Assembly (NCBI RefSeq): GCF_026210795.1
Contig: NC_089432.1
Coordinates: 3,286,001-3,350,000, forward strand
Direction of reading: 5' to 3'
DNA from: Rhizophagus irregularis
Lineage: Eukaryota
DNA: 64,000 nt
In this document: in pieces, positions 12,886 to 53,835 of the stretch
Numbering within the stretch: position 1 is the stretch's first letter
How the letters are laid out: every line of letters starts with the position of its first letter
The notes under the pieces: generated by a model
What the model was told of the DNA's origin: nothing
The model's database searches: none
The model's input: the letters and a program-made list of their open reading frames with translations, nothing else
Made by a program: the position numbers and the translations under genes

Positions 12886-13697
12886 AATCTAAAAAATAGA
12901 TTAAATGGTAAAAAAATATGTTAGAAGACTCGAGTACTCTAAGTAAGCTTTGTAGAAAAGACAGATTCAAGCCCCCATGCCTACTATCAACTGACATTAA
13001 CGATATATCGTGAGTGATCAAACTCGTGCAGAGGTACTGTCACATTGATAATAAGACATGAGACCCACCACCAAAGGGAAGGGCCCCACATACAGAAGTC
13101 TGCGACATAGCTTGAGATATTATTATTTTTCCATTATTTTTCTCATTAAGGTAACCAGACGTCTAGAAGAGGAGGATAACCAAAGCACTCTAGGTGCACA
13201 ACTCCCTTATACATCCCAGCTTAGTCATTTCCACTTACCAAATTAGTAAAAAATCAATAAATTATCACTGCTAATTTCCGTTGATCAAATATAAATTTCC
13301 AAGATTTGAAGGTTAAAGCTTTATGTAAATCATGGAATCTAAAAAATAGAATATACGGTAAAAAATATGTTAGAAGACTCGAGTACTCGATAAGTAAGCT
13401 TTGTAGAAAAGACAGATTCAAGCCCCCATGCCTACTATCAACTGACATTAACGATATATCGTGAGTGATCAAACTCGTGCAGAGGTACTGCCACATTGAT
13501 AATAAGACATGAGACCCACCACCAAAGGGAAGGGCCCCACATACAGAAGTCTGCGACATAGCTTGAGATATTATTATTATTTTTCCATTATTTTTCTCAT
13601 TAAGGTAACCAGACTTCTAGAAGAGGAGGATAACCAAAGCACTCTAGGTGCACAACTCCCTTATACATCCCAGCTTAGTCATTTCCACTTACCAAAA
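12886..13697. repeat. Tandem direct duplication: two near-identical ~360-bp copies at ~450-bp period
   Basis: 12886-13245 is nearly identical to 13336-13697; ORFs 13058 and 13509 are near-identical translations. Confidence 0.9.
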
Positions 13698-14949
13698 TAA
13701 TAAAAAGTCCAAGAATATTTATTTTCATTGTTTGATGTTAAGTAAAAGTCTTCCAAGGCTTTTTTTACAAAAATGAATAAGAATAAAAATCTTGTATATA
13801 AAATATAAGTTTGAGAAAGTTATAATAAATATTAAAAGGAAAAAAAATTTGGAGACGGAGAGAAAAGAAAAAGTGACTTTATTTCTCATGGGAAAAATCA
13901 TTAAAATATATACTGTAAGTCATTGTGATTATATGATGTAAAATTGTTTACGCGTTATAATCAATTAATCATTACGCGCATTACACAAATGTTGATCACG
14001 TTGGTTAATATTAGTTAAGTCATTCCGGAATTATGAATAAAAAAAAAATTTTGGAGGACGTAGTGGCGCAGTAGGTCACGTTACACTCTTTTCGTGTAAG
14101 TTTATTGGCTGGATTTTTTTACTTGTATTAATAAAGAATTCTTAAGATACAAAGTGTAAAAAAAGTGGAATCTGAAAAAATACTAGATAGGAAAATGAGT
14201 TTGTTAATCCGGAAATGACGCTCTTATGGTAGAAGTTGTGAAGACTAAATTTGTGACTTCCAAATAGTCTGTCGGTCTCTGTCCGTTGCCTTTCAACATA
14301 CGTTAAGTACTGACATTTTAGTTATGTTTTTGAGATTTTAAAATTCTTCGCATTGAAAACAAAATTTCAAATTAATTTTCAGACTAAAACGCAGGAACAA
14401 GTATTGATACGAAATACAATCCATAAATCAGCCTATGATCATGTTATAATTGCTTTTTTTTTGGTACCTTTTTGACGTCGGTCAGAGACAAAAAGTGGAG
14501 GTTTACTACATGAATCTCATTCAATATTCGAAAGAATACCAGTTCGGGATGTGCTTTTAAGAAATCATAGAATGAAATGAATAATTTTAAGCGTGGCTAT
14601 AAACAACTTGTTCTCCTTGACTTATGTTCTGGTAATCACCTGTATTCTCGCATACGGGGATACAAAAATAGGGAATAAGTAGAACTCGTTCTGTGTGCAG
14701 TTGTGGTAAAAATTTTTCTTACAGATCAGGCGATGACACTTTTTTGGAGAACATGGAACCTTAAATACAAGAATTCACGTACTGTACATTTTCCGTTTGA
14801 GATTTTAAAGTTGTATTCAGAAAAATGAGATCCTGAAAGATGAAACTTTAACAGTCATGAAATGTGTCACTGTCAAATGTTTTCTATTCGCGTTATAAAC
14901 TATGTTTAGAAGCCAAGGAAGATCCTTTTAATCCGACTAAAAAAATTTT

Positions 14950-17687: not shown

Positions 17688-18002
17688 TCAACAACAACAT
17701 CCTCCCTTTAATAAAAAAATTTTTTTCACTTTCTTTAACCTAATTTTCATGTAGTATATATTTTAATAGTACTCTCTCAAAAATTTCATAATGACGTCAT
17801 TGTTTTATATATTACGCAATTACTGCGTTACTGACTTTTTTTGTTTGATAATACCAAATACCAAAATCACGCTGTACTACATCGGAGAAAAAAAAAATTT
17901 ATATAATAAGCACACACAATAAAACTAACAATTTTTACTTTTCATTTTTTTTTTTAACTTTCTGTTAACTTATTATTATTCAATACGTTCGATAATATCA
18001 AA

Positions 18003-19668
18003 ATGCAAGATACTGAAAATACAAATGAATGGGTTAATTGGATTGAAGAAGCAGTTGATAAAGAACATTTAAAATTTTATAAATATGAAGAATTTAATAA
18101 GATTCAATGTATTGGTACTGGAAGTTTTGGAAACGTATATCGTGCAAATTGGAAAAATTCAGAAAAACTATTTGCGTTAAAATCTTTTTTTAGTCTTAAT
18201 AACATCACCATGAAAGAAATAGTTCGTGAGGTATTTTAATGTATAATACATTTTTTTCTATCTATGAAATTTTATCTAATACCTATCTTTATTTCAAATA
18301 TTTTTATTTTTTATTCAGTTAAAAATTCAACGCCAAGTTGATTTTCATGATAACATTATTCGTTACTATGGAATAACAAAACTTGAGTCAGGTATTATTA
18401 ACATCACCTTGTATAAATATAATACGCAAAATTTTACAAAAGTTCATTTTAATTATTTCTTTTATTCATTAGAAAATCATAATAATTATGGATTAGTAAT
18501 GGAATACGCTGACGACGGTACTCTTCGAAGTTATTTAAAGGAAAATTTTAACAAACTTACTTGGGATGATAAATATAATATGGCATACCAGTTATCTTGT
18601 GCCGTATCATGCTTACATAACGAAAGAATAGTACATCGTGACTTGGTAATTTATTTATTATTTAATCATTAATAGTAATGTATTTTGTATTATTAATTTA
18701 AAAAAAATTGTTTATACATGTTTCTTTAATAGCACTCCTGTAATATACTAGTCCGTAATAACACAATCAAATTAGCAGATTTTGGATTATCTCAAAGAAT
18801 TGGAGCATCATCCAATTTTCAATCTAAATTATTTGGTGTGGTTCCTTATGTCGATCCAAAAAGCTTTAGTAGACGAAAAAATAATAATAATCAATCAACA
18901 CAAATGTACTTATTAAATGAAAAAAGTGATATTTATAGTATAGGCGTATTATTTTGGGAAATATCTAGTGGTCAACCTCCTTTTTATGTTGAGGATGAAC
19001 ATTATGATGTTGGTTTAGTTGTGGAAATTTCACAAGGTCTTAGAGAAATTGTTGTTCCTGACACTCCTGAAGAATATGTTAAAATTTATACTAGTGAGTA
19101 AAATTTAAAAATTTAAATTCTACATTTTTATAATTTAAAATATTATTTTAATTAAATCTTAAATTACATTTATTTCTTAGAATGTTGGGATGGGGAACCA
19201 GATAATCGTCCAACTATATATCAAGTAGTTGATTGGTTAAATGCAATAATTACAAAATCAGATGTAATAATAGAAAATCATCAAATGTCAAATGAACAAG
19301 AACTTAATGAGACTTCTTTAAGTACTAATAATTCAGAATTACAAGGTCAACTTATTCAAAATTTTGATAAAATGATTATTAAAGAAATTGGTCCTATGGC
19401 AATATCAAGTAAACAAGAAAATCATTCAACTGAAAAAGATTTTAACATTATGGTTGATGATAATTGGTCATATGTGATGGGTATAACACCATCAACAGCT
19501 ACGCAAGTGGCTAGCCCAATATCTCCCGTCAGTGTGATCAATCCTAATTATTCCTATCCTATACAAGACGAAGAAGAAGAAGGTGAATGGTTAACTGAAG
19601 ATGAACAAGAGGAGACTCCCGTCAGTGTGATCAATACTAATTATTCCCATCCTATACAGGACGAATAA
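18003..19668 (+). CDS. TKL-type protein kinase whose C-terminus is copied from the SP-RING gene
   Basis: Exons 18003-18230, 18319-18391, 18473-18645, 18733-19093 and 19181-19668 splice in frame. Motifs: GTGSFG, ALK, HRDLH, DFG, KSDIYS. Confidence 0.85.
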
Positions 19669-19870
19669 GAAGAAGGTGAATGGTTAACTGAAGATGAACA
19701 AGAGGAGATAGTTTTAGACTCGTCAAGCGCTGATATAAAAAAAGAAGGATTTTAATTGCTTAAAAGTAATATTATTTTTTTTTCGGTATGGCTATAATTA
19801 ACAAGAAAAAGAATAAAATTTAATATCATGAGATCTTAATTAATTAATTGCCTCAAATTTTATTATATTC
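19460..19870 (+). repeat. Duplicated copy of the SP-RING gene 3' end and 3' UTR (source ~5522-5949)
   Basis: NWSYVMGITPS...ATQVASPISPVSV.NPNYS.PIQDEEEEGEWLTEDEQEE is shared; DNA identity continues through GGATTTTAATTGCTTAAAAGTAATAT to GCCTCAAATTTTATTATATTC. Confidence 0.95.
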
Positions 19871-22800
19871 ATACTCCTTTAATTCTTCTTTCATCGGTCT
19901 TTCTGTTTCCTGATATATTACTTTCAACGATTGCCCCATAACTATAAATTTTTGTCTGTCTAAAATTTTTCTTCTTTACTATCTTCTATCACGCGATTAT
20001 TTGTCTCTTTTTTATTTACTTGTCTAAAGTCTAAACTCATTAATTATCTGTACCACCTCATCATAAATCGTATTTTCATCTAACTTCTTTGTTTATTCAT
20101 TATGGATGTTTTGGTGTAATAAGAAAAAAAAAATTTTAACTATTGTAGTAAAAAAAAAACCGGGTAATCTCAGTCTGTTACACAAGAGCGCGATCGAATA
20201 TATTTTATGCCTCGTATAATAGGATAGCATGTTTAAGGAGCGCGGATTAACACGTTGCTTTATTATCTTTTGTAATATGTAGATTAATTAAAACAATCTA
20301 TTCTTATTCACGCGCTTCATAAGAGTTTTAAAAAAAAAATTCACGGATATTGATGTTATAATAATAAGGTTATTATGCATGTAAGTACGTACAATTAATA
20401 TCCGATCTCTGAAATAATTTTTGCGCATTAAAAAAATCCTGTGCGTTTTGTTTCGTCAATAATCTTTTTTTTCATTATTATTGATATTATTTCATTTTCT
20501 TATTATTATTGATATTATTTCATTTTTCTAAATTACTCTAAATTTATGACGTTATGTCCAATCATTTTCCGATCATTTTCAAAAAAGAATATAATTTTAA
20601 CGAAAAAAAATTTTTACAAGTACAGTATATGATTGATTATTACTTTGTATCATAAACTTAATGTTCACTATAAAAGATTTTAAATATATATTATATCACA
20701 ATCGGATTTATATATTTTAGAGATAAATTTTCATATATTTCTTAGATAAAAAGTTTTATATAATCGTTTATATAATAATAAATAATTATAGACACAAAAA
20801 CAATTAAGCAATGGCCCGATCTTAAATATGTCCATTCAACCTTTTCTTTTTCTGTTTCAAAATACTAAAACGCCAACAGAGTCAAAAATTTTTAATAATT
20901 CGTTTATATACTAATAATAAACGATTTTAACGCATCCATTCACGTCTTTTATTGTAAAATATACGTAAAAAAACAATATCTATACGTAATTTTGTGCAAT
21001 GTTAAATATTTAAATACGTCGGTTTTGTATCTTTTTTTTATCTCCTACGCATATTATTGTTATATCCTCTTTAACATATGTTATACAAACGAAAATACCT
21101 TCTCAAAGAAGAAAGAAGATAAAGAATCGTAAGGCATTTTCGACTTAACATACTTATTAATAATGGAAGCACATTGAGGTTTGTCGCGAACCTTCAATTT
21201 TTCAACGGATTTTCTTTTTATTAACTCCAAAAAATTATAACTAATGAAAAAAATGAATAAATTTGGCAAGTAATTAATCAGAATTTTTTTGTTTATAATA
21301 TAGTAATATAAATTGGAATACTATATCATTGTTTAATGGATGGAATAGAAAATTCAGGGCAATTTTATAGATAATAATAAATATAGTCTTCATTTGTTTA
21401 ATGAAAATAAATTAAAAATGGTAAGTCCTTTTCTAAGTTTCATCTATATAATAACTAAAATTATCTGCTCGTTTCAAGATATGATCGTGTATTTCTGCAT
21501 TTCAGGATATGATATCATTAATTCGTCATAATAAATTTCCTTTAAATAATTCTACCTTTGTTAAAATCTTAACAAAGGTCACAATCTATTTGACTTGGGG
21601 TAATATCAAGTCTCACCCATGGTGAGGAATAATTTTACCCTTTTTTATAATTACAAATTGATTTTTTTTTTTTAATCTCTAATAACCAAAAAACAATAAT
21701 TTTTTTTGTCTCGAAAAAAAATAAAAAAAAATCTCATCTGTTTTTTTTAAAAAAAAAAAAATTTTTTTGGTTATTATCCATGGTTGGAGAATAATAAGAA
21801 AGAAGGAGATAAAGGAAAAAAAATAACGAATAAAGAAAAATAAAAAGTACACTTAATTATTAAATGTCCTGAGAGATTTATTAGCTGTTAGAATTACTTT
21901 TTAATTCTCTCGAAATTTAATATCTTTTTTAGACTAATCATTAAGATTAATAAATTATGCTTGTAATTCTAGTTCAGGCGATTCACCATATTCTTTTCGC
22001 CTCCCTTCTAATGCTGCTAATGCGTCTTCATCTATTGGTGTAGATGGTGTAGATGGACCATTAGATGGTCTCTTTGATCTTTGACCATTTGAACTCCTTC
22101 TCTTTACATACCGTCGAGTACTTTTCACGTGGTTGAAGATTTAACCAGCCGGAAGGTATTGGTAGTCTTGAGAAACTTACTCTATTATTAGATAATGGTG
22201 AAGAGAAGTAAGCTGCATCTTGATGATGAGCTAGGAGTTCCAAGGGTTCCTATTGATACTGCAGCTTCGACTACTGCATAAGCTTAACCTAATTTATGAT
22301 TTCTCAGGCAATTATTATATTTCTTTCTTTATTAGGTTACCTAATTATAAAAATTTGTTAATCGTTTGATCATCTCTAAATTTATAGTAGACAATTAATT
22401 AAAAGCGTAATTAAATGAAATAAAGTAGTTGTTTATTTCGTCAAAGAATTCAATTAAATCTTTTTTTTTTTTTTTTTTTTTAATGATTTATATATGCTTT
22501 ATTGATATGTAGTTTATATACCATACAAACAAATTATCATAAGCTATAAATTCAATTTAATCTAAATCATAAAAAATAAAATATTTAATTTGCAACTTCA
22601 GGATAATCTAAAAAAATATAAATTATTGCGGTACAATATCAGATATGTCTACTATTTTCATTTTTTTTTCTTAGAATATTACCCGCCTCCGGTTAAATCA
22701 ATATAGTTTTTTTGAATTTTTAAATTTAAGGAAAAAAGCACTAAGTTTCATATAGTTATTAAAAAGAGTACATTTTCTCACTCTTTGACCCACTAACTTG

Positions 22801-25499
22801 AGTTCATCATATAACTTTTATTATTCAAACGAATGGCGCAGTAAAATTAATAAACTGGACGTTTTATAAAGGAAGATTTATAATTACTTTAGCTTATACT
22901 CTACTTTCGCTAAAATTTGACCAAAGTTATATTATTCTTAATTTAAGATTACGCGTAACTATAAATAATTTTTCCATTTTCCATTTTCGATTTTTTTTTC
23001 TGTCACTTTCAAGAAATCTTGAGGGAAGAACTATTACATTCATGTTTACTCATTGTTATTGACATTTTTAATAGAACTTTTATTATTTCGAAACAACCAT
23101 TTTATGAGGCTTTTCCATATATTTCAATTAATTTTTCATGAGTAATAAATAAATTAATCAAATGTGTATTTGGTGATATTAATTATAAACAATTATTTAA
23201 TATTTTCGAATATTCTGTATTGAAAAAAAAATCATTTTCATTTTCAACTCTAAAGTACTTCTAAAGTGTAATATTATATTCTGTCCTGAATGTCGAATTT
23301 TGATTAGGTAATATTAAACCTGAAAATTCATTATTTAATTGTCTAAGGAAAGTTAAAATATACTGTAAGTACTATAATTCTCAAAAAAAAAAAAAAAATT
23401 TGGGAGTAATAAAATTTGTAACGTCAGAAAGATGATGATTTATTTATACAATAGAATTAAAAATTTGTCTTTATAATTTTATAGTGAATAAGATGTTAAT
23501 GATAATAATTAAGAGAAGCTAATTTACCAAAAACTTCAAATCTTTCTTTACTAAATTTAATTATATAAGTAGTCGATTGAAATAATAAAACTACTTTTAA
23601 ATATTTTAATAATCTTTTATATCTGCAGTTTTTTTGTACTATAAGTAATTTTTTCTATTTTGGTATTTATAAGGAATAATAATAATTGTATAAGGAATAA
23701 AAATGATGGTTAGATCATTTACTTACATACTGTATTTCACAATATTGAGTCCATATTACCATTAAATGGGAAAGAAAAATGTTAATAAAAATGCTAACGA
23801 ATAACGATAATGTATATTATTCCTTTAAACAAAAATGGAGTGATTAAAAATTTAATAATTTTCATTTGATTTATTATTATATTTTCATATGGAGATTAGC
23901 TATCAAATTATTTGGATGAAGACATACTATCATGAATCATGTTGTAACATTCTATAAACTTTACACATCAATAAATTTTACGCATGGTCAATATAATAAT
24001 GATCATTAAATTTATTTATATAATATAATAATAGTGTTGACATATCAGACAACAACAAGATGAACTTCAAGTTTATAATTGTAAACCTGTTAATTCTAAA
24101 GTGCAGATTATCCTTAAGTTACAACCCATATATATAAAAGTTGAAACAAATGAAATTGTGTTTGGGAATTATTAAATAAGTAATATAAAAAAGTAGAATA
24201 CCTAAAACTCGAGTTAAGGAATTAATTGAATAGATGGGATGTATACAGTGAAATTTGATATAATGGAACCATCCATTCCATTAGTAAATTTGTCAAAAAT
24301 CCATTATATCAAGAATCCTTGTTGTATTAAAGGTAAATTAATTATAGACTCTAATTCTGATATATCAAGATTTTACTTATCAGTATATCAAATTTTATTG
24401 TGTACAACACAACAAATTTTTAATGCAATTAAGTAATTTCTCAATAATGTAATACTTATTATACATACCTTAAAAATGAAGGAGATTTAAATAATAATTA
24501 TTTTGGAAAAGCCACAACATAGTATTTATCTTAGTTCTGTTTTAAAGATAAAAATGTTATTGCTTTAACAGAAATAAGTGAGGTTTTATACAATCACTAC
24601 AAAGACTACAAAAGATATAATTGTTGATACAAAGTTACAAATTGAAATTTTGCAAAACCACTGGTAGTTCATTAGCAGGAAAACTCTTTGAAATGTTGGT
24701 TCATGATATGATATATAAAGGTTAAGTAGTTGCACCATTCTTGAAGTTGAAAATTTTGAGTCTGTTATTAGTGCTATCTATTATGCCTTGTAATAACATT
24801 AATTATTAATATTATATAACAATAGTAGAAATACATAAGGCATTTGATGATGTTCTAAACATTATTAACAGACTTAAATTTTGGTATGGATATATGAAAT
24901 TCTTTACTTATGGCACCACTAAATATGGAAAGTTGCATTGATAGTATGCTTTTTTCTTAAAACTGAAAAGCTTGCAATACATTTTGATTGCCATAAATTG
25001 GCCAGAATTCAATATCAGCCATTGAAATGAGTATAAAAAATTTTATATTATTTATTTTACTTTTATACATCGGAATGGTTTTATATACTTATATTATCAT
25101 TTTGATAATTTATGTTTAATAATTGGAAAGCTAAAAAAAAGATTTATTTAAATTACAAACTAAGAAATTTGTAAAATAATTACTACTCTAGCCTTAGTGT
25201 TTAAATAATTCTACCAAAAAAAAAGAGAATACATATATGAATAAAATATAAAAAAAAGGAATTATTTAAATTACAAATTAAGAATCTTGTAAAATATTTT
25301 ACTAGTACTCTAGCCTTAGTGTTTAAATAAATCTAAACAACAATTTCTGTTAAATGCATAACATCAAATACACTTAAAAAAAACTATAAATTCTTATAAA
25401 AACACAAATAATTGGTTATTTTTTATCTGGTTTAATATCTAAATAAATAAATAAATAAAATTAATTCACATAAATAATTTGCAAAATTAATATACTATA

Positions 25500-28400
25500 T
25501 TACATACCTAATGACTTCAAATTAAATATACAATCATCCAAATCTTTACTTACTAGCATTTCGTTCACTTTTACATTAGCTTGTGAATCTTCACTTTCAA
25601 GAATTTCATTCACTTTTCCACTAGTAGATGATTGACTTAAATAATAAGCTTGTAAATTTCTACTTTCAAGAATTTCATTCAATTCTTTACTAGTAAAATC
25701 AAGTAAGCGACTTGTATAATATGCCTGTGAATGAGATATAGTAGCAAGGTTATTGTTATGCCCAATTGGTGCGTTTATAAATTCCATAATATTGTATTTT
25801 AATTCTTCATTAATATCTTCAACATTATATGGAGGAGCAATCCAATTTTCAATAATATTTAACACTTCTTTAGAAGATGGCCTTTTTAATGGATTTTCAT
25901 CCCAACACTTTTTCATCAATTCTACATAATGCTGTGGAGTATTTTCAATAATTTCAGGACGTTCACCTTCACAAATACTTAAACTAAGTTGAATATCATG
26001 TGCTTTATTATTATATGGTGGTATTCCAGATGTAAATTCCCACATAATCATAGAAAAACTATATATATCACTAGCTGGAGTATAGGAATTTCCTCTTAAA
26101 ATTTCAGGTGCCATAAATGGTATAACACCATAAATATCATATTTTTTCAAAAATGATTTTACAGGTTTACATAATCCTAAATCACTAATATAAATTTTAC
26201 CCTTATTATGATTTAAAATATTACCATCATGAAAATCACAATGAATAAGCTCTTGTTTATGTATATCATTAAGTCCAGAAATAATTTCAAATAACATATA
26301 TAATTTTTGATTCCAATCACTTTTGATTATTTTTGATAAGTTTCCTCTTAAATTACCTTCATTTGCATAATCCATTACCACCATATATTTCAAAGTATCT
26401 GGATCTTTTGTAAATCCATAAAAATAGATAATATAATATGAACTTAAACAACTTCCATGATATTTCCACTATAAATAATAATAATGATATATTAATATAA
26501 ATAAATATTAATTTAAATAAAAAAATAAATAATATATTATCATACTTCATTTAAAAATTCATTTAAATTTTCACTTAGATTATTATGAAGTTTAAGAATT
26601 ACTTCATTATCTTTATTATCATAAAACCAAGTAGCTTTGTATATTGTACCAAATCTTCCTTTATCAAGATACTCAACATTTTTAAATTTATCATAAGGAA
26701 TCCATTTTAATTTTTTTTCAAAAATAAAATTATCCATAATTGTATTTCCACTTTTTCCTAATCTATAAATTTAAATAATCAAAATTATTATTAAAGTTTA
26801 TATTAAAATCACATTAAAATTTAATCAACATTTACCCTAAAATTTAAACAGAAATTTAATATAATGTATATCTTAGTTATATACAATAATAACCTATATT
26901 TTAAAACTTACCAACTAAAGTAACAAAAATTTATATGAAAAGATTCAATTAATAATTATTTATAAAGTATATAACAATAGAAATAACAAATAACTTACAA
27001 GCTGTATTATCAAATTTTTAAATAAAGAATTTAGTTAGTTTAAATTATATACAAATATTATATAAATAAGTAATAGTAGAACTAAATAAATAACTTACAC
27101 CCTATAAATATTATTAAATAATTTTTTAAATAAAGAATTAGTTAGTTTAAATTATATGTAAATATTGTATAAATAAGTAATAATAGAATTAAATAAATAA
27201 CTTACTTCCTATATTATTAAACAATAATTTTTTAAAAATAAAGAATTTATTAGTTAGTTTAAATTATATGTATATATTATATAAATAGTAATAATAGATT
27301 AAATAAATAACTTACTCCCTATTTTTTAAATAAAAAATTTAGTTAGATTGAATTATATGTAAATATTATAACAATAAGTAATAATAGATTAAATAAATAA
27401 CTTAAAACTTACAATCTATTTAAATAAATAATTTAGGTAGTTTAAATTATATGTAAGTATTATATAAATATATAGTAATAGAATTAAATAAATAACTTAT
27501 AGTCTACCAACTAAAAAAATTACAAAATGATTTTTTTGTAAATATTATATAAATAAGTAATAATACTATAGAATTAAATAAATAACTTATAACTTACAAT
27601 CTATTTAAATTAAGGATTTAGTTAGTTTAAATTATATGTAAATATTATATAAATAATTAATAATAGAATTAAATAAATAACTTATAGCCTACCACCTAAA
27701 AAAATTACAAAATAATTTTTTAAGTAAAGAATTCAGTTAGTTTAGTTTAAATTATGTGTAAATATTATATATATAAATAAGTGATAATACTGTAGAATTA
27801 AATAATTAACTTATAACTTACAATCTATTTAAATTAAGAATTTAGTTAGTTTAAATTATATGTAAATATTATATAAATAAATAATATTAGAATTAAATAA
27901 ACAATTTATAACTTACAAACTAAAGAAATTACAAAATAATTTTTTAAAAAAAGAATTTAATTAGTTTAAACAATATGTAAATATTATATAAATAAATCAT
28001 AATAGAATTGAATAAATAACTTATAACTTACTAACTATAATTTTTTAATTAATGTTTTAGTTAGTTAAAATTATATGTAAATATTATAATAGAATTAAAT
28101 AAGTAACTTACAATCTATTAAATAAAAGAAATTAGTTAGTTTAAATTATATACAAATATTATATAAATAAGTAATAATAGAATTAAATAAATAACTTACT
28201 TCCTATATTATTAAATAATTTTTTTTAAATAAAGAATTTAGTTAGTTTAAAATATATGCTAAATATTATTTAAATAAGTAATATTTAAATAAGTAATAAT
28301 AGATTAAATAAATAACTTATAACTTACCAACTAAAAGAAATTACAAAATAATTTTTTAAATAAAGAATTTAGTTAGCTTAAATTATATAAATATTATATA

Positions 28401-31400
28401 AGTAAGTAATAATAGAATTAAATAAATAACATACCATCTATAAAATAATTTTTGAATAAAGAATTTAGTTAATTCAAATTATATTAAATTATATAAATAA
28501 GTAATAAAATAACTTATAACTTACAATCTATTTAAATAAAGAATTTAGTAAGTTAAAATTATATGCAAATATTATATAAATGAGTAATACTAGATTTATG
28601 ACTTACGATCTATTTAATAAAGAATTCAGTTAGTTTAAATTATATATAAATAAGTAATAATAGATTAAATAATAACCTATAACTTACCAACTAAAGTAAA
28701 TTACAAAATAATTAATTTAATTTAATAGATTAAATTATATGTAAATATTATATAAATAAGTAAAAATAGAATTAAATAAAATAACTTTTAACTTACCAAC
28801 TAAAAGAGATCACAAAATAATATTTTTAAATAAAAAATTTAGTTAGTTTAAATTATATGTAAATATTATATAACTAAGTAATAATAAGGAAATAATAATT
28901 TTATGCAGGTGTGTTGCAACGCACCCCCTTTTTGGAAATTATTAAATAGTAAATTTGCTGATCATAACGTAATCATAGATGATTGACAAATTTACTATTT
29001 AAAAATTTCCAAAAAGGGGGGGTGCGTTCAAATTTTAAACCTTTAAATAAATAACTTATAACTTACGATCTATTTAAAAATAAAGAATTTAATTAGTTTA
29101 AATTATATGTAAATATTATATAAATAAGTAATAATAAGAATTAAATAAATAACTTACTCCCTATATTATTAAATAATTTTTTAAATAAAGAATTTAGTTA
29201 GTTTAAATTATATGTAAATATTATATAAATAAGTAACAATAGAATTATACTTACTCCCTATATTATTAAATAGTTTTTTAAATAAAGAATTTGGTTAGTT
29301 TAAATGATAGAATTAAATAAATAACCTATAACTTACCAACTAAAAGAATTACAAAATAATTTTTTAAATAAAGAAATTAATTAGTTTAAATTATATATAA
29401 ATATTGTATAAATAGAATTAAATAAATAACTTACCAACTATAAAATAATTTTTAAATAAAGAAATTAATTAGTTTAAATTATATATAGATATTGTATAAA
29501 TAGAATTAAATAAATAACTTACACTCTATATTATCTAATAATTTTTTAAATAAAGAATTTAGTTAGTTTAAATTCTATGTAAATATTATATATTATAATT
29601 AAATAAATAACTTATAACTTACCAACTAAGGAAATTACAAAATAATTTTTAAATAAAGAATTTAATTTATGTAAATATTATATAAATAAGTAATAATAGA
29701 ATTAAATACTAAATAATTTATAACTTACGATCTATTAAATAAATAAAAAAATTAGTTAGTTTAAATTATATGCAAATATTATATAAATAAATAATAATAG
29801 AATTAAATAAATAACTTACTCCCTATATTATTAAATAATTTTTTAAATAAAGAATTTAGTTAGTTTAAATTATACGTAAATATCATTTAAATAAGTAATA
29901 ATAGAATTAAATGAATAACCCACTCCCTATATTATTAAATAATTTTTTACATAAAGAATTTAGTTAGTTTTTAAATTATATGCAAATATTATATAAATAA
30001 GTAATAATAGAATTAAATAAATAACTTATAACTTACAATCTATTTAAATAAAGAATTAAGTTAGTTTAAATTATACATAAATATTATATAAATGTACTAA
30101 TAGAATTAAATAAATAACTTATAACTTACGTAAAGAATTTAATTAGTTCAAATTATATGTAAATATTGTATGAATAAGTAATAATAGAATTTAAATAAAT
30201 AACTTATAACTTACCAACTAAAAAAAATTACAAAATAATTTTTTGGATAAAGAATTTAATTAGTTTAAATTATATGTAAAAATTGTATAAATAAGTAATA
30301 ATTAAATAAATATCTTATAATTTACCAACTAAAAGAAATAACAATATAATTTTTTTAAGTAAAGAATTTAGTTAGTTTAAATTATATGCAAATATTATAT
30401 AAATAAGTAATAATAGAATTAATAATGAAATAACTTACTCCCTATATTATTAAATAATTTTTTGAATAAAGAATTTAGTTAGTTTAAATTATAAGCAACA
30501 ATAAAATTAAATAAATAACTTACTCCCTATATTATTAAATAATTTTTTAAATAAAGAATTTAGTTAGTTTAAATTATATAAATATTAAATAAATATGCAA
30601 TAATAGAATTAATAAATAACTTACTCCCTATTATTAAATAATTTTCAAATAAAGAATTTAGTTAGTTTAAATTATATGTAAATATTATAACAATAAGTAA
30701 TAATAGATTAATAGAATTAAATAAATAGCTTATAACTCACCAACTAAAAGAAATTACAAAATAATGTTTTAAATAAATAATTTAGTTATTTTAAATTGTA
30801 TGTAAATATTATACAAATAAGTAATAATAGAATTAAATAAATAACTTATAACTTACCAACTAAAAGAAATTACAAAATAATTTTTTAAATAAAAAATTTT
30901 GTTAGCTTAAATTATATGTAAATATTATATAAATAAGTAATAATAGAATTAAATAAATAACTTACTTCCTATATTATTTAATAATATTTTACATAAAGAA
31001 TATAATTAGTTTAAATTATATGTAAATATTATAACAATAAGTAATAGTAGAATTAAATGAATAACTTATAACCTACCAACTAAAAGAAATTACAAAATAG
31101 TTTTTTTAAATGAAGAATTTAATTAGTTAAAATTATATGTAAATATCAAATAAATAAGTGATATATAAATAAGTAATAATAGAATTAAATAAATAACTTA
31201 TAACTTACTATCTATTTAAAAAAAAATTTAGTTAGTTGAAATTATATGTAAATATTATATAATTAAGTAATAATAGAGTTAAATAAATAACCTACCCCCT
31301 ACATTATTAAATAATTTTTCAAATAAAAAATTTAGTTTAAATTATATGTAAATATTATATAAATAAATAACTTATGACTTACAATCTATTTAAGTAAAGA

Positions 31401-34400
31401 ATTTAGTTAGGTTAAATTATATGTAAATATTAAATAAATAAGTGATATATAAATAAGTAACAATAGAATTAAATAAATAAATAACTTACGATCTATTTAA
31501 TTAAGAATTTAATGTTTTATAAATAAGTAATAATAGAATTAAATAAATAACTTACTCCCTGTATTTTTAATAATTTTTTAAATAAAGAATTTAGTTAGTT
31601 TAAATTATAAGCAACAGCAACAATAAATTAAATAAATAACTTACTCCCTATATTATTAAGTAATTTTTTAAATGAAGAATTTAGTTAGTTTAAATTATAT
31701 GTAAATATGTAATAATAGAATTAATAAATAACTTACTCCCTATATTATTAAATAATTTTTTAAATAAAGAATTTAGTTAGATTAAATTATATGTAAGTAT
31801 TTTATAAATAAATAATAATAGAATTAAATAAATAACTTATAGCCTACCGACTAAAAAAATTACAAAATAATTTTTTAAACAGAGAATTTACTTAGTTTAA
31901 ATTATATGCAAATTTTATACAAATAAGTAATAATAGAATTAAATAAATAACTTATAACTTACAATCTATTTAAAAAAGAATTTAGTAGTTAGTTGAAATT
32001 ATATGTAAATATTATATAATTAAGTAATAATAGAGTTAAATAAATAACCTACCCCCTACATTATTAAATAATTTTTCAAGTAAAAAATTTAGTTTAAATT
32101 ATATGTAAATATTATATAATAAATAACTTATGACTTACAATCTATTTAAGTAAAGAATTTAATTAGGTTAAATTATATGTAAATATTAAATAAATAAGTG
32201 ATATATAAATAAGTAATAATAGAATTAAATAAATAAATAACTTACGATCTACTATTTAATAAAGAATTTAATTAGTCTAAATTATATGTAAATGTTATAT
32301 AAATAAGTAATAATAGAATTAAATAAATAACTTACTCCCTATATTTTTAATAATTTTTTAAATAAAGAATTTAGTTTAAATTATAAATAACAGCAACAAT
32401 AAAATTAAATAAATAACTTACTCCCTATATTATTAAGTAATTTATTAAATGAAGAATTTACTTAGTTTAAATTATATGCAAATTTTATACAAATAAGTAA
32501 TAATAGAATTAAATAAAAAAACTTATAACTTACCAACTAAAAAAATTACAAAATAATATTTTAAAATGAATTTAATTAGTTTAAATTATTTTCAAATATC
32601 ATATAAATAAGTAATAATATAATTGAATAAATAACTTATAACTTATGATCTATTTAAATAAAGAACTTAGTTTAAATTATATGTAAATATTAGGCCACAC
32701 AAATTCGAATTTTCGGTTCACTTCACCCGGCCGGGTCACTTTTTCAAATTTCAATAAAAAAAAGTTTATATATAAAAAATTTATCATGTGATCAGAACGT
32801 AATTTTATTGGCGGGTAAGTTTATCACGCGGCTGAGAACTTCTAGAGCGAAAATAAATTCCTCCCTTTTAAAAGTCAACCAATCAAATGTCACGATTTTA
32901 TATATAAACTTTTTTTACTAATAAACAATAAACCCTGGGTCCCCGGGTCGATTTTAAATTTCAATGTTACGTGAACTGAAAAATTGAATTTGTGTGGCCT
33001 TATATAAATAAGTAATAATAGAATTAAATAAATAACTTACTCCCTATGTTAGTAAATAATTTTTAAATAAAGAATTTAGTTAGTTTAATTATGTAAATAT
33101 TAAATAAATAAGTAATAATAGAAATTAATTATTTCTTACGATCTATTTAAATAAAGAATTTGGCTAGTTTAAATTATATGTAATTATATAAATAATTAAA
33201 TATAGAATTAAATAAATAGTAACTTACTCTCTATATTATTAAATAATTTTTAAATAAAGAATTTGGTCAGTTTAAATTATATATAAATATTATATAAATA
33301 GGTAAACAAGTAATAATAGAGTTAAGTAAGTGGCTTACTCCCTATATTATTAAATAATTTTTTAAATATATAAAGAAATTAGTTAGTTTAAATTATATGT
33401 AAATATTATAACAATAAGTAATAATAGAATTAAATAAATAACTTATAACTTACAATCTATTTAAAATTTAGTTAGTTTAAATTATATGTAAATATTATAT
33501 AAATAAAGTAATAACAGAATTAGATAAATAACTTATAACTTACAAACTAAAAAAAAATTACAAAATAATTTTTTAAATAAAGAATTTAGTTAGTTTAAAT
33601 TATATGTAAAATATTATATAAATAAGTAATAATAGAATTAAATAAATACTTCCTATATTATTAAATAATTTTTAAAATAAAGAATTTAGTTAGTTTAAAA
33701 TATATATAAATATTATATAAATAAGTAATAATAGAATTAAATAACTTACTTCCTATATTATTAAATAATTTTTTAAATAAAGAATTTAGTTAGTTTAAAA
33801 TATATGTAAATATATATTATAACAATAAGTACTGGTAATAGAATTAAATAAATAACTATAACTTACCAACTAAAAGAAATTACAAAATAATTTTTTAAAT
33901 AAAGAATTTTGTTAGCTTAAATTATATAAATAATAGAAATATATACATCTATAACTTACACCCTAGTATTATTATTAATTAATTATTAGTTAAATATAAA
34001 TATAATACAAAAGTATTTACTGTAATTAAATGTATCACTTACAATCTAGTTATTTAAATTAAGAATATAATTAGTTGAATTATTTAAAATATTAAAATAT
34101 TAACAAACAGATATAATATTGTAACTTACCATCTGTAATACAATTAATTATTAAATAGTTAATTAAATAAAGAATTCAGTTATTATTATATTATGTAAAA
34201 TAAATAAAACAAAGTAAAGAATTAAAGATTTTTTAAATAACCAATAACTTACCGACTATAGTATTATTATATTAATCATTAAATAAATTATTTAGTTACA
34301 TGAAATATAAAAAAATGATAAGTAATTCCATTATTATTCAATTATAAGATAACTTATTAACTTACGAGCTAAATTATTTAATATTATTTTTGTATATATA

Positions 34401-34725
34401 GTTAGTTTAATTTGTTATTATGTAAGGTATAAATAATTATAGTTAGTATTTAAATGTATTTACAAATAAAAATTTAATATTTTAGCATGTTTAATATACC
34501 TTTAGATTCCTTGATACTTCTTTCTTCAAATTCTTCAGGGTCACTTTCTTTGAATTCCTCAGAGCTACTTCCTTTAAATTCTTCAGTACTACTTCCTTTA
34601 AATTCAATATTACCAGAAACTAGTTTTATTATATTATAAATTTGTTTAAAAATATTAGAATTCTAATTGTATTAAATGTTTATATTATACATATGATTAT
34701 TACCTTTATCATTACTGAGAACCAT
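25500..34725 (-). CDS. TKL-type protein kinase with a micro-exon-encoded N-terminal region (predicted gene model)
   Basis: Exon 1 34725-34704 (MVLSNDK+G); exon 2 34619-34500 (120 nt, phase 1); ~69 3-nt micro-exons; then kinase exons 26762(or 26757)-26546 and 26468-25500 with KSGNTIMDNFI, DKGRFG, ILK, HCDFHDGN, DLG, MAPE. The kinase part is secure; the link to the 5' exons is inferred. Confidence 0.7.
28888..29041. mobile_element. Short palindromic insertion (MITE-like) inside an array intron
   Basis: Inverted arms AACGCACCCCCTTTTTGGAAATT...TAAATAGTAAATTTG / CAAATTTACTATTTA...AATTTCCAAAAAGGGGGGGTGCGTT interrupt a repeat unit. TSD is not clean. Confidence 0.7.
32693..32999. mobile_element. PIF/Harbinger-type MITE inside an array intron
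   Basis: TIR GGCCACACAAATTC...GAATTTGTGTGGCC; TTA TSD. Removing it restores the unit sequence AAATATTATATAAAT. Confidence 0.9.
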
Positions 34726-37144: not shown

Positions 37145-39163
37145 TAATTCTATTATTTTATAAGTTCTTCTAATCTATTTTGATCTTTTCGATATTCTTG
37201 TTTAGCTGATTTTTCATACCAGTAAATTGCTGTATATAGATCTTTTTAACTCCGTCTCCTTTTTCATATTTCAAAGCAAGATTATATTGTGCTGCCTTTT
37301 ATCCTAAATTTGCAGCTTCCCGATACAATTAAGCTGCCTTTTGCTTATCAATATTAATTCCAATTCCACTACCATAACAATATCCGTATGTAGTGATTCC
37401 TTTTAAATACCCTTATTCAGCTGATCTTTTACATAATTCAAAAGCTTTTCGGTAATCTTTATTATCACCTCCTCTAATATATAAAAGACCAAGATTATGC
37501 ATAGCCATCAAATGTCCATTATTTGCAGCTTTTTCATAAAAATACACAGCCATTTTTAAAATTTTATTAACAATTTTACCAGTTTCATAAAACCAACCTA
37601 AATTAAATTGTCCCATTGCACAATCTTTTTTAGCTACTTTTTTATAATGTAATAATGCCTGCATTTCATTCTTTGGAGTTCCAATTCCAGATTGATATCA
37701 TTTTCCAACAAAATATTGTACTAATATTTGATTCTCTTCTGATACACTCTTAAATAAATTAAAAGCTTTTTCTTCATCTTTTATTGTTCCAATTCCATAA
37801 TAATTAAAATATCCAAGTAAGAAGATTAATTCTAAAGTATTTTGATTATTTGATAACCAATTATAAATTTGAGTGTTGAAATAATCACCTTGTTCTACTA
37901 CACCCCAATCTTTTCCTTTATTTTCTTCCTTAAAAATTAGATCAACTTATTCATTAATCATAATATTAAAATTTTTTTCAAATGGAATATTTTGATTAAT
38001 TTGTTCTTTTGTGATTATCCAATCTCTTTCACTTGTATTAATATTATTGTAATTAGAATTTTGAAACTTTGAAATAAATAACATTTTTAATCTATTAACA
38101 ACTTCATGTACAGTTGGTCGTTTACTCGGTTCATTATTCCAACATTCTAATAATTAAAGAAATGTATTTGATTAAAATGAAGTGACTTAATAAGTAAAAC
38201 AAACAATGCGTTAAATCATATTTACCAGTATACAGAGTGGAATAATCGCTAGGAGTATCAGGAATAATTTCTTCTCTTCGGCCTTGTGAAATGTTATAGA
38301 TTAAACCAATCTTATTTATCTCTTCATGAAATGGTGGTTTCCCACTTGATATTTCCCAAAGTAAAACGCCAATACTATCGATCCTTTTTGATAATCCAAA
38401 ATCTGCCAGTTTGATGGAGTTCCGATGAACCAATACATTACAGGAATGCTATTATAATGAATAAATAAAATTTAATTAATGTAATTTATAAAATATTTTA
38501 TTAATTTATTAAAAAAAAATTACCAAGTCTCGGTGAACAATTTCTGGAACAAGCTAATTGATAAGTAAATTGAATTTATATTCCAACTAAGTCTCTTGAA
38601 GTTTTTGTTTAAATAGTCACGAAGAGATCCACCATCGGCGTATTCCATTATCAATAAATAATTTTTTGTTTGTTCAATTTTATTTTCTAATGAAAAGAAT
38701 AATCACTTTATTTAAAAAAAAATTTATAAGTAAATTTATATTTAGTTATTGATATTTAAATATTTACAAATACCTGATTCAAGTTTTGTAATTCCACAAA
38801 AGCGATTAATATTATCATTAAAATCTATTTCTCGTTAAAGCTTAAACTAAAAATAAAGAAATTAAAAACCTAATAAATATAAAAATAGTACACAAAGTAA
38901 TTATTTAATATATAATCGAATTTTTTTTTAATTACCTCATTAATAATTTCTTTTAAAGTAATACTGTTAAAATTAAAAAAAGATTTCAATGCAAAATAAT
39001 AATGATCATGATTTTTCCAATTTGCACAAAAAACCTTTCCAAAAGATCCAGTTCCAATCTCTTGAATATTTTTAAAATTTCAAATTCATAATATTTAATG
39101 TTTTCTATTGATAGCATCTTCAATCCAATAAATCGATTTATCAATATTTTCATTATTTTGCAT
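37145..39163 (-). pseudogene. Kinase-SEL1 repeat pseudogene
   Basis: Starts MQNNENID like the 45868 and 53836 genes. Frameshift in exon 1, deletion joining DFGLSKRID directly to SIGVLLWE, and several stops/frameshifts in the SEL1 repeats. Confidence 0.85.
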
Positions 39164-39883
39164 TTTTGTTATTATTGTTTATTATTAACAGAAATTGTCA
39201 ATGGAGTAAAAACAATAAAAATTTTTTTATGGAAAAAGTTCTAATTTATAGATTTATGTAAATCATACATATAGACTTGTATACGCCTTTTACGGAAAAG
39301 AGATGGAATATAAAAACAGATCGACTTTTTTACGGGGTATATAAAATACCTTTATTGCTTTTTTAACTAAATATAGCTTATTAACAAATCTTTAGTTTAT
39401 TTATTAAAAAGATTTTTTATATCACGATAATTTCCCAAAATTCCAACATTTTTTAATTTGACTATTTTGTTAGCAGTTAAATTTATAGGACCGTTTGAAT
39501 TAATTTAGGTAGAACTTTTGAGCCAAGAAGTTGTCCAAAGTTGTCCAAAGAATTTTTATATCTAAATTACCAAATTAATTTTTTTTTTTATCAGATAAAC
39601 TCATCTACCTAAAGGCGAAAATAAAAAAAAAACAAAGTAAAAATAAAATTAATCTGGATCACTTGTAATATAAAATCCAAAATATCTTTACCAAAATATA
39701 TATTGTGTAGTAAACCTTGTGCTCTCGTAAAAAGGCTATTATAAATTTATCCATTTTTTTGTAATACCTAATTTTTTTTTTAATAAAGATTATTTCTATT
39801 ATCCTATATAATATTTGTTTCTTTAAAAACTGTTTGTAATAAGAACACTCCAAAAAATAAATGTTCTTCCTTTTTCATGATAC

Positions 39884-41668: not shown

Positions 41669-44360
41669 AACTGTAGTGCATCTTTATTAAGAATTATGTC
41701 TATTGACTTCCTAAATTACAAGATACGTAGAGCCAACATGTTTATACACCATGTCAACCCTATAACAGAGTATTCCGAACTATACTACTAAAATGCATTA
41801 CAGAAAAATAATAAAATAAATACAATACCTGATAAAAATAAAATATACTAAAACTAACAGACTATTCAATTTTTGAAACCTAACTATTGAATTCTAATTT
41901 TTAAAGTGTAGGATTAAAAGTGAAATGCGTAATAGCGTCCAGGTCTGCCCTGTGCAGCTTCGAAAAGATGAGTCCCAACGGTCTCACACCCAAACAGTTT
42001 ATTCCACCAAATCCCCCTTATACCTACAAAAAATAAAAGTTAGTATTCTAAACTACATTGAATGAGTCGGAATAAAATATATTTTTGTTGTTAAATTTTG
42101 TTATCAGAATCTTTTTAACGTGAATCACGTGACTTTGATTAAAAATATAATTCATTTCTCCTCATAAATCTTTTCCTTCGCTCTTCACTTCTTGTTGTTC
42201 TTCTTCTTCGTCTTTTTCCTTCCGCTGGTCTTCTTTGATGGTGATGTCTTCAGTTCTAGTTTTTCTTCTTCTGCTGCTTCTTCCTCGTTTTCTTCGTCTT
42301 CTTCTTTGTATTGGATCGTGGAAGTGGATGGAATCAGCTCTTGTTGCCTTTTTTCTAAGTAAAATGCCTTAAAAGCCTTGTTCCTCTCCTCTTCATCCTC
42401 TATGTAACTCCATTTACTCGGCGATTCTAATATTGGTCTTTTTTCGCCGATCTTCTTTTCATCTTGGTAGCGATTTTCGTTCTCCAATCTTTGTTTAAAA
42501 TTATCATTTAGGGTAGTATATTCTTGAAATATTTTCGATTTTTCCACTAAACTTATAATCTTTTGTTCTAAACGGAAAAAATTGTTTTTTTCCAAGGCCC
42601 AATTCTTTGCTTCGTCCCAGTTTTTTATCTCATGCTCCTTGCGTAGTTCGTCTACGGCCTCGACGTTAATTTTTTCCCATTCCATTTCGTTGGACGTTTG
42701 ATTGAAGATATCTTTCACTTCCTTCAATTTATCCACCAAACTTCCATCGTGGGTTGATTCTTGATACTGAACATATTTGATTTTGTTCAATGTTCTGTAA
42801 TCTTTTATGATTTCAACCACTTCTTCAGGCGCTACGTTGTCTTTCTTCAGTTGTTACCCTTTTTCTCCGAAGTGTCATTGTGATCTGGAGTATTCTCTTC
42901 TCCTACTCTCCAATTTTTGATCATCTCAACAACTTCATTTTCGTCTGGCGTCTTGCTTATCCTTAGTGGCTTATCCGCTTTTGATGGATGTAGTAAGCTT
43001 TCTTTTCGCGAAGCGAAGTTCCCTAATTCTCTGTAAATTCTCTCCGGTGGTGTTATAGGTGTCTTCGGTTCACTGGCCAGCCGTAGAGGTAATCTTATTT
43101 TATTATCTGTAGCTATGACCTTATCCTGATCTATCTTCTCTTGCGGTTTCTTCATCCTTGTCTTATCATCACCATCTTTGTATATCGTCTTTTTGTTTCT
43201 CACTAGCCAAACTCTATTGATATCTCCTTCTGTGCATGAATCCTCCACTGCTTCTTCCATTTCTTTGAGGTTCTTGAAATATCCAATCACTTTCCAATTT
43301 TTCGTGATTTTGATAATTTTGATGAACGCCGTCTTGGAAGTTTGTTGCAGTTTCTTCGTAAAATCGTATGTATTTCCCTTCTTTATGGATTCCATTTCCT
43401 CGTTAGTTAGGTCTCTCACAGTCTGCCATTGATCCCGCTCCTGTCGTCCTTTCAAGCCTAGTTTCGCGTCGTACCATCTGATGAAATTTTTGCTAATACA
43501 AATACTGAAATATCCATTCAAGAACGTTTTTTCGAAATTTTTGTTCAATGCGATTTTTGCCTTCACGGTTTTGTATTTATATTGACCTCGAATTTGCAGT
43601 CTATATACCGTTCCTATCTTCATCAGATTTGTTCTTACGTCATCCTCGCTCCAGTATTTTGGTATATCGTAGAAAATATGTCACGTGCCTCCTTGGCCTG
43701 CTGATCATTACTGGTATTTTCGGGTAAAACTGGTATCTCTAGGATTTCTTCCCGTTTTCTCCTATTTGATGTCGATCTGCCTTTATTGGATTTCTTCGGC
43801 CGATTGATTTCTTTGTTGATATCAGTCTTAACCTTTTTTAGCTCTGATCTCGTTTTCTCTACTTCTTGTGAAATTTTCCTTATTTGCTCATTTTTCTGCG
43901 ATATTATTCGTTCCTGTGTTTTCTCCAACTTGCCTTTCTTATCCATCATGTGATCTTTCCTCCGCAGTTCTTCTCGCAGCTTTGAATTTTCCCATGAGAG
44001 TCTTTTTATTTCGTCTGTATAGACATTGAAAGACATTGCTGAACACTTTAAAACTATTTCTTGTATAGTCTCTTTTCTGCGTACAGTGTCGTTCCGTATT
44101 GACTCCAGGAAGTTCTGTTCTGTTTTGCTGAGGTTAAAGTCTCTTCGTGCTCTTTCTTGGCCTTTTACCGTTATTCTTGAGTCTACACTAGAAAAATTTT
44201 TTGTTTCTTTTAGAAACCTATATCTATATTCTGTAAATTTGTATGCTGACTCCATTTTTGAGGTTTTTTATTTGGGTTTTATTAATAAAAATACTCGTAA
44301 AAGACGTTTTTCTTTCCGCTAAAAATTTGGGCAGAATGATCGTCAGAAAGAGTTCTTGTC
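41637..44360 (-). mobile_element. Poly(A)-tailed non-LTR retroposon with an ORF1-like coding region and no reverse transcriptase
   Basis: 17-bp TSD GTATGTTTTGATATATA at 41620-36 and 44361-77; T25 tract at 41637-61 is the minus-strand poly(A); contains ORFs 44255-43635, 43623-42847 and 42820-42185. Confidence 0.85.
42185..44255 (-). pseudogene. ORF1/Gag-like nucleic-acid-binding protein (coiled coil + RRM-like), split by two frameshifts
   Basis: Coiled-coil first ORF. A frame switch near 43675 gives RDIF/FYDIPKYWSEDDVRTNLMKIGTVYRLQIR (RRM-like); a second switch lies near 42855; basic C-terminal tail. Confidence 0.55.
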
Positions 44361-45330: not shown

Positions 45331-45867
45331 TTACTAATTATTTCTAAAATATCTTCTTTTATTTGCAATTTCTTAAAATTTAAAATTATATTGTCACAAT
45401 AAAATAATGTTATCTAAAATAAAATATTTTTTGTACAAATTATATATTTTCCGGTAAACTATGTAAAGGATTATCTTCTAGATTAAAAGTTCAACAGTCG
45501 AATACGAGTGATTTTTCCTAAAATTCCGATTAGTTGAATATCTTTTAAATTATATATTGTAAATTACTTAATTAATTCATTCATTTACTAAATTTATCTT
45601 TATTTTCCAAATATTTTGGTAAACTGTTGCAAAAAGAAATTTTTTTGCTGATCTGCTTGTGTAATAATACTGCTGAGGGGGAACCTTCCGGCTTCCGTAT
45701 GAAACTAATGGATTTCCTGCATAATTTGTTACACAAAATATTAATTTATACGAATCAATAAATAGAAAATTATTTTTTTTTTCTTTTTTTGACTTTTTAC
45801 CGTTAACATTTTTTATTGATTTTAACCACATCTTATACTAAAATTAAAAAATAATAACAAAAAAAAA

Positions 45868-52598: not shown

Positions 52599-53835
52599 CT
52601 GATTAACACCTTTATATCTCAATAATCACATTTTCTTAATATAATAATGCGAAGATTAAACCCTAATGTGTAAGTAATAATATTTCTCAAACTCCAATTT
52701 TTTACTTTGACTATTTTATTAGCGGCTAATTCTATAGGACCGTCTAAATTAATTGAGGTGGATCTTTGGGTCAAAAGCAGTTGTCCAAAAATATGCTTGA
52801 GAATTTGCCGTATCTAAAGTTAAATCTCATTGTTTCTTCCATTTATTGAATCTTTATCTTAAGTTCAATATTTAATTGATAAAAATTCTTTACACAATAA
52901 TAGGAAAGTGAAGTCTTATAATCGATAATGATACCAACAGTAGAGCGTTTGTAAGCACTATACGCTGAATGTTTGCGCTCATTAAATCGCTTAAAAAGAA
53001 TCAGATATGTATCTTTTCCAGGAGTATTATTAAACAAAACATTCTATTTTCACATCTAAGAAATGAAAATTTGATTTTTAATTTTTTTAATAAAAACTGA
53101 CCCGAATTTTTTTCTTTGATAAAATGATACAGTGTGAGTTGCGGTTAGTATATTTCTTTAAATTTCTTGTAACCTTGTTAACTTGTGATTCAAATTAAAT
53201 TAATTTTTTTTATTTTATAGAATGAATCTTGAGAAATTCCATGTTAAATTATAACGATTGATGATCGGCATTATGATTCTAAAATACATCAGCAGTAAGC
53301 TAAATAATCTCAATTTTTGCATTTTATATTATAATATCTATGTCATCAAATTTGAATTACTTGTCAATTTTGGACTAATTAAAATTTATGATAATTTTTT
53401 TTTAAATTTTAAAAATATGCATAATCACCGAGATATTCAATTTTTTCTAACCACAATTTTTTTCTTAACACACCGTAATCAATGGTCAATTTTTTTTTTA
53501 TTACAAAAGATAAATTAAAAATGGCAAGTGATTTCCTTTTCTAACAAAAAATAATTTAAAGAAGGTAGTTTCATCTATACTAACAATATCTGAAAGTTTC
53601 TTCGTCCTTTGGAATTTAGACTAAAATGCAAAATCTAGTCCATAAATACTTCAATTTTAAAATGCAATTAAGTTTTAATATGCTGCTGTTGATCGACAAT
53701 TAATTTATGTTTACCACACTGTTTGTTACACAAGTGATTTGCCCAAATCTATAAATAGACTTTTTTTGACTTCGTTAAAAATTTTATTGCTTTTCTCCAT
53801 TTACTATTTCTATTAAAAAAAAAATAATAACAAAA

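Follow-up and report, generated by a model that had tools for sequence, protein, structure and literature searches.

Can an array that looks like a satellite be a string of exons? The question is raised by a kinase gene on the minus strand of a 64,000-nt stretch of the Rhizophagus irregularis genome (assembly GCF_026210795.1, contig NC_089432.1, positions 3,286,001 to 3,350,000; this whole stretch is called the window below, and positions are counted from its first nucleotide). Tandem Repeats Finder calls the array at 26912-34499 a ~100 bp repeat. In the orientation of the gene, each unit holds an intron acceptor (YAG), three nucleotides and the donor (GT) of the next intron. Taking all parts together, we consider it probable that the array consists of 69 introns with 3-base exons, likely spliced, as in paralogs, into a variable segment ahead of the kinase that is shuffled by cassettes and likely serves recognition.

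Between 34368 and 26912, a script counted 69 intact minus-strand units of the form YAG-nnn-GT, one 3-nt exon following each intron (the first at 34368-34366, the last at 26914-26912), and two damaged units read from the sequence brought the total to 71. Both the count and the list of triplets were exactly as claimed by the first-pass annotation. A count of 82 obtained by loose, fuzzy matching of the repeat core was discarded, as it included spurious matches. At 69 units, the array resembles the nank genes of Tuber in its unbroken run of many tens of 3-nt exons bounded by canonical splice sites. The spacing from AG to GT on this strand was 3 nt in 75 instances, and spacings of 0, 1, 2, 4 and 5 nt occurred one to seven times each (seven for spacing 0, where AG directly precedes GT). 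Further peaks were found at 6 nt (26 instances) and 7 nt (69 instances), the latter because GTAAGT holds a second GT.

The mean likeness of the array introns was ~83% (65 aligned introns), and 50 of the 69 contained a strict CTRAY branch motif. Intron length was 63-131 nt in 66 of 69 cases; the three longer introns (175, 267 and 504 nt) owe their length to an enclosed damaged unit, an inverted-repeat insertion, or both. One damaged unit (32647-32649) is a triplet whose donor has changed from GT to AT and whose branch region is shortened. The other (30124-30129) is an orphan donor within the 175-nt intron, its acceptor and triplet deleted. Two insertions resemble miniature inverted-repeat transposable elements and are putatively of that kind: one in intron 15 (32693-32999), with ~40-bp terminal inverted repeats and TTA on both flanks, and one of hairpin type in intron 50 (28905-29043, ends approximate). 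No other chain of at least three YAG-nnn-GT units was present on either strand within the 64 kb, and no second cluster or outside copy of the array introns was reported there.

The conservation of the splice sites was assessed on a tree of 59 introns, with 75 intron-core columns (2.7 parsimony changes per column) as the reference. This test superseded a naive binomial test, which ignores relatedness. The four splice-dinucleotide positions had undergone two events, compared to ~10.8 expected from the core columns (P ~0.0015); the splice dinucleotides are kept better than the intron cores. The array is almost certainly real spliceosomal architecture.

Judged from its sequence, the host is a fungal tyrosine-kinase-like gene with the array N-terminal to the catalytic domain. 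The minus-strand exon at 26468-25503 was 100% identical over 322 amino acids to a named R. irregularis protein, P0001 in our numbering of public models. Pfam assigned PK_Tyr_Ser-Thr to P0001 (E 1e-42), and the protein contains VxLK, HCD, DLG and APE, which we take to be kinase motifs. Relatives of P0001 at E<=1e-60 numbered 766 among 2,003 candidates, and those named among the 120 matches listed were from Rhizophagus. With a PF07714 kinase domain and many Rhizophagus paralogs, the gene belongs to an expanded Glomeromycota tyrosine-kinase-like family.

All parts of the gene lie on the minus strand. The coding part of exon 1 (34704-34725, 22 nt, ATG at 34725) was placed by polyA joints and by an N-terminus similar to those of public models P0011 and P0017. 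It is followed by an ordinary 84-nt GT-AG intron (34620-34703) and by exon 2 (34500-34619), which is 120 nt long, acidic and built of 24-nt repeats, and at whose end RNA depth falls. Downstream of the array come a predicted 1-nt exon (G, 26836) between introns 26911-26837 and 26835-26763, placed by the frame and by a single base in paralog mRNAs, and the first kinase exon (26546-26762, N-lobe), placed by sequence and by loose RNA read ends. The main kinase exon (25508-26468) was set by the identity to P0001 and by Pfam, and the last coding exon (25416-25438, seven residues and a stop) matches the end of public model P0123.

Exons 1 and 2 both end in phase 1. Every array codon would therefore be split, its first base lying in one micro-exon and its other two in the following one, and the initial listing of the triplets as codons was wrong. 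That frame-0 reading, though open, was set aside because the RNA joins put both ends in phase 1. With all 69 triplets kept, the frame is open from the ATG at 34725 to 25509 with no stop, and the predicted protein has 509 amino acids if the kinase is entered via the 1-nt exon at 26836 and acceptor 26762, or 507 via acceptor 26757. One of these two, the extra base or acceptor 26757, is required: the direct join to a kinase exon starting at 26762, as originally proposed, is out of frame and meets a stop at amino acid 117. The predicted segment likely comprises ~69 residues from ~7.5 kb, just before the kinase domain, and has a high content of R, W, D, N, G, I and V. Splitting of codons in phase 1 was seen in paralog mRNAs and is predicted for the window copy.

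RNA was compared to the two flanks of the array, with about a quarter of each run read. For the 5' side, three polyA runs (X22, X23 and X24, from two samples) and one contig set were compared to exons 1-2 at 85% likeness; for the 3' side, two polyA runs and two contig sets were compared to 26380-26911 at 90% likeness. In each of the three runs, 10-14 polyA reads, mostly from paralogs, joined 34704 to 34619 and thereby spliced out the 84-nt intron (CT..AC at the joint). Loose read ends at 34500 numbered 44-45 per run. Two of the consensus rows listed for these ends agreed with the opening six triplets of the window array at 16 and 15 of 18 bases, and shuffled triplet order did equally well in 0 and 3 of 20,000 trials, respectively. 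The remaining 5' rows listed read as further exon-2-type repeats from longer paralogs.

On the 3' side, loose ends were found at 26762 (73 and 64 reads), 26758 (21 and 31) and 26755 (14). Among the distinct rows listed, four of six ended in CTT TTG, the last two triplets of the window array, and two of six were one base off. The kinase frame was open in all six distinct rows examined, which differed from one another further upstream. Agreement within the loose ends was 0.57-0.92 overall, with paralogs mixed, and often low (0.57-0.77). One 3' string of X24 reached 0.92 over 30 nt in 31 reads (the matching X23 string had 0.77), and one 5' string reached 0.87 in seven reads. The 0.92 agreement somewhat favours the constitutive inclusion of 3' micro-exons, and the lower agreement elsewhere may reflect paralog mixtures. 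The strings that match both ends of the triplet series come from polyA reads of paralogs; the window copy's own reads are nearly absent. We are fairly confident that the window copy is, or recently was, spliced with its triplets included.

In the six paralog mRNA rows examined, the last triplet was followed by exactly one base before the counterpart of 26762, and this extra base is apparently part of the kinase exon. At joints 26837 and 26850, the upstream intron abuts the single extra base of the paralogs, and therefore the 73-nt intron 26835-26763 and the 1-nt exon at 26836 may be particular to the window copy. The 73-nt GT-AG segment lies one base inside the start of the paralog kinase exon and may have been gained recently as an intron, with a 1-nt exon as the result.

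Public protein models were examined for the same segment. Two phase-1 motifs were sought in 128 models and were carried by none. In several models the intron is translated as far as the kinase exon, and the four models of the cluster of the host gene, P0001, P0123 and P0125 among them, start downstream of the array. Strings rich in G, I and L that look like frame 0 were present in, among others, P0126 (from the nearest paralog cluster), P0027, P0050 and P0071, and the start and end of the P0126 string resemble the window triplets in frame 0. Because no model had the phase-1 motifs and because of the intron read-through and the frame-0-like strings, we infer that the triplet strings of the paralogs come from micro-exons. 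At the protein level, exon 2 by itself had no match in longer proteins among 27 candidates. A search with the N-terminus of P0011 yielded six among 17, none with the full phase-1 segment, and a short stretch of P0017 may be such a segment. The examined models drop the segment or seem to read it in a different frame, and the proteins are likely misannotated.

The composition of the array was analysed in units 6-67. The acceptor tail predicted the first base of the triplet (Cramer V 0.81) and this base predicted the donor head (V 0.73); within a single intron, donor head and acceptor tail showed no link (V 0.16, P 0.46). From this linkage with unlinked intron ends, the moving unit is likely an exon-centred cassette that is exchanged via the intron middle. 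A 1,016-bp block of the array is duplicated at 85%, and the segment is composed of three cassette lineages. Cassette shuffling is, in our judgement, highly likely.

Short fungal introns are expected to be spliced by intron definition. The array would be spliced in this way, and its micro-exons likely yield a 69-residue variable segment before the kinase. The homologous intron middles would let unequal crossover or slippage add, delete or reorder acceptor-triplet-donor cassettes with the frame kept, and every such change would also recode the junction codons. Most of the diversity likely arises in the DNA, as differences among paralogs and among isolates; the ends of the strings are alike between paralogs and the middle is not. 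The segment could act as a specificity or recognition module in a kinase of an expanded family, a role to which we give an even chance.

Next, we examined metagenome contigs, whose names fall under few prefixes and which are possibly not independent of one another. A family-independent pattern (two consecutive units) yielded at least 104 stretches, of which 101 were analysed, and 22 of these 101 loci passed a loose filter of at least five units and at least four different triplets. Most of the 101 loci were rejected as other repeats or chance. Ten loci were AT-rich arrays, and seven resembled the window array by blastn. Arrays lay 5' of a kinase in the same orientation in L003 (18 units), L051 (17), L014 (four) and L035 (six), and those of L003, L051 and L014 enter the kinase in phase 1. 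Pfam did not confirm the kinase-like fragment that follows the L093 array (13 units). In L053 and L007 the array starts after an ATG-bearing open reading frame (ORF) and the contig view ends inside it. L083 and L101 have other intron types, and the introns of L083 are not obviously homologous.

Stop codons were counted in the window and nine AT-rich loci (10 arrays, 153 triplets; L101, with no units under the filter, was left out). Phase 1 contained no stops, compared to 2.97 after shuffling (P=0.03), and phase 2 contained 22. Conserved splice sites, an open frame, paralog reads and related arrays 5' of kinases together bear out the first-pass annotation in its central claim of tandem introns with 3-nt exons in a kinase gene, ~69 residues being encoded in 7.5 kb.

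Arrays with unrelated, GC-richer introns were found in L019, L054, L065, L076, L061 and L081. L019:2507-8261 (+) encodes an alpha/beta hydrolase, NPHP3_N/NACHT, a winged helix and a weak ankyrin match, followed by at least 34 near-identical 80-nt introns with 3-nt spacers; going by these domain matches, it has the appearance of a nank-type arrangement, as in Tuber, from a different fungus. In L054:8567-10875 (+) and L065 (-), homologous introns of ~53 nt alternate with 3-nt spacers (a loose count gives 18 and 32 units, respectively), and the L054 array follows a P-loop GTPase-like ORF (Pfam Arf, E 7e-6). In L076:9878-11140 (+) and L101 (-), a short ORF begins with a hydrophobic stretch and continues into 5-12 three-base exons; these are possible small secreted proteins with micro-exon tails, the start being signal-peptide-like by eye. 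L061:91-1390 (+), L081 and L083 are further intron arrays with 3-nt spacers, for which no host gene was identified. The unrelated introns in arrays by NLR-type and GTPase-like genes suggest a convergent fungal strategy.

Several observations weigh against a spliced, shuffled segment in the window copy. At 26759, 149 of 150 reads (X23 and X24) carry another base, which points to a paralog origin. Reads at least 99% alike made up just 4 of 252 and 2 of 265 on the 3' flank and 0 of 397 on exons 1-2, and no read or contig in the flank comparisons spans a whole array. The micro-exon origin of the paralog strings derives from public models rather than from paralog DNA. Two units have decayed, the ORF is likewise open when all triplets are skipped, and the window taken by itself shows no significant avoidance of phase-1 stops (P=0.13). 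The alignment had been inspected before the cassette types were set by hand, and the units, being related, cannot be counted as independent. The L044 array is decaying, and no kinase is seen beside it.

Combinatorial exon skipping, as in Tuber nank, would give many isoforms per gene, with the frame kept and the junction recoded. It is compatible with a variable pre-kinase segment, and we regard it as possible, at well below an even chance. Stops arise in just 48 of 2,346 ordered pairs of micro-exons, and 19 different amino acids can be encoded at the joins; the often low agreement of the loose ends and the Tuber precedent, as far as the excerpted accounts of it go, also favour skipping. However, mixed paralogs already predict low agreement, and the strings with 0.92 (3') and 0.87 (5') agreement fit mostly constitutive inclusion at the two ends.

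Somewhat more doubtful is the explanation that the array is a tolerated by-product, in which a spliced, frame-neutral cassette of an intron and 3 nt multiplies in a dispensable linker and selection just keeps the kinase frame. Frame maintenance alone would account for the conserved splice sites and the avoidance of stops, and a frame open with none or all of the triplets, three cassette lineages and the existence of decaying arrays such as L044 are all in keeping with it. Nevertheless, the first and last micro-exons are conserved among paralogs, and the unrelated introns in arrays by NLR-type (L019) and GTPase-like (L054) genes suggest repeated recruitment in variable families. Losing the array would presumably also be a simple way to save 7.5 kb of additional transcription.

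We consider it improbable that the window copy is silent or decaying, with an array that outgrew the spliceosome and no protein made, while the paralogs make theirs. The near absence of reads of the window allele would follow from this, and the two damaged units and two inverted-repeat insertions are what a decaying copy might show; the AG of a damaged unit is kept, and its use would insert 116 nt out of frame. Yet the ORF and 69 of 71 units are intact, the four kinase motifs are present in P0001, and the RNA runs may come from another strain or stage. A satellite within one long intron, or a recursive-splicing ladder, with triplets that never enter mRNA, would agree with the Tandem Repeats Finder call, with public models of the host gene that begin after the array and with a frame kept on skipping all triplets, but it is very unlikely, being largely refuted for the family by the triplet strings in polyA reads at both ends and opposed by the spacing of 3 rather than 0, splice sites conserved above the core and homologous arrays in gene orientation.

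A spliced, cassette-shuffled segment before the kinase is thus the reading we prefer. Its widest extension is possible, at well below an even chance: arbuscular mycorrhizal fungi might possess an unannotated receptor-diversification system, in which a clade of the expanded kinases bears a hypervariable segment of dozens of 3-base exons in phase 1, and in which inter-nuclear crossover in the intron cores and exon skipping vary this segment for non-self recognition, convergent with the NLR and GTPase-like arrays.

Elsewhere in the window, other kinase genes cluster at 17958-19668, 37413-39265, 45826-48145, 53779-56511 and 61258-63317, their DNA 64-83% alike. None of them contains a micro-exon array on either strand of the 64 kb. 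Several have repeat-rich C-termini, which we take to be Sel1-like. Segments 5600-5953 and 19496-19875, the end of a glutamine-rich gene and a kinase gene tail, are 75% identical, and this tail holds a 93-bp tandem duplication. A motif near 4242-4496 in the glutamine-rich gene is presumably SP-RING/MIZ-like. A direct duplication of 375 bp (96% identity) lies at 12886-13709. The region 42185-44267 (-) is GC-richer and strand-skewed, has three long overlapping ORFs and is possibly a decayed mobile element.

R. irregularis has ~2,500 kinase genes (PMC10234402), and the expansion of its kinases has been noted (PMC4219462, PMC10234402); the kinase-expansion passages of these two papers do not mention micro-exons. 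A literature search returned no report of such arrays in Glomeromycota or their kinases, with most subscription journals outside its coverage. To our knowledge, the role of this kinase expansion is still an open question, and a hidden variable segment in a kinase subfamily offers a concrete handle on it. Likewise, 69 consecutive 3-nt exons are an extreme natural test of intron definition and splicing fidelity.

Introner-like elements are families of homologous, near-identical introns dispersed in unrelated genes, and the ratchet points of recursive splicing are adjacent acceptors and donors. The array shares homologous introns with the former and neighbouring acceptors and donors with the latter. 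Unlike introner-like elements, its units are in tandem in one gene and are not dispersed within the window. Unlike recursive splicing, which has zero-length exons, it has a 3-nt spacer (75 spacings compared to seven of zero) and its triplets occur in paralog mRNA.

In the excerpt available of 10.1101/2023.06.21.545858, schistosome micro-exon genes are described as having 3-81-bp exons and introns of up to 5 kb and as encoding secreted proteins. They too form a variable protein from many very short exons; the window exons differ in being all 3 nt, between introns that are ~100-nt homologous repeats and in a gene with a kinase product, which sets the array apart from that class. Repeat-exon shuffling is described for brown algal LRR and NB-ARC-TPR receptor genes (excerpt of PMC13449251). 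As described there, both systems have exon cassettes in homologous introns that are exchangeable by recombination or splicing, but the algal exon is a whole protein repeat and the window exon is three bases.

The first-pass annotation knew of no described equivalent. Codon-sized (3-bp) mini-exons have, however, been reported in the nank NACHT-ankyrin NLR genes of Tuber melanosporum, where they are credited to Iotti et al. 2012, and alternative splicing of these mini-exons has been reported as well (excerpts of PMC4986451, PMC13449251 and PMC10197012). By these descriptions, both systems have tens of tandem 3-nt exons that form a variable segment in an expanded family of a mycorrhizal fungus. 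The host here is a Glomeromycota tyrosine-kinase-like gene (PK_Tyr_Ser-Thr / Pkinase) rather than an ascomycete NACHT-ankyrin NLR, and the window segment is N-terminal to the catalytic domain. Within the sources excerpted, codon-sized exon arrays have so far been reported for one truffle family, and the unrelated-intron arrays hint at wider fungal use. Set against the same accounts of Tuber, the host family, the lineage, the position and the 69 units are new here, and the array works like the codon-sized exons of Tuber, outside the nank family.

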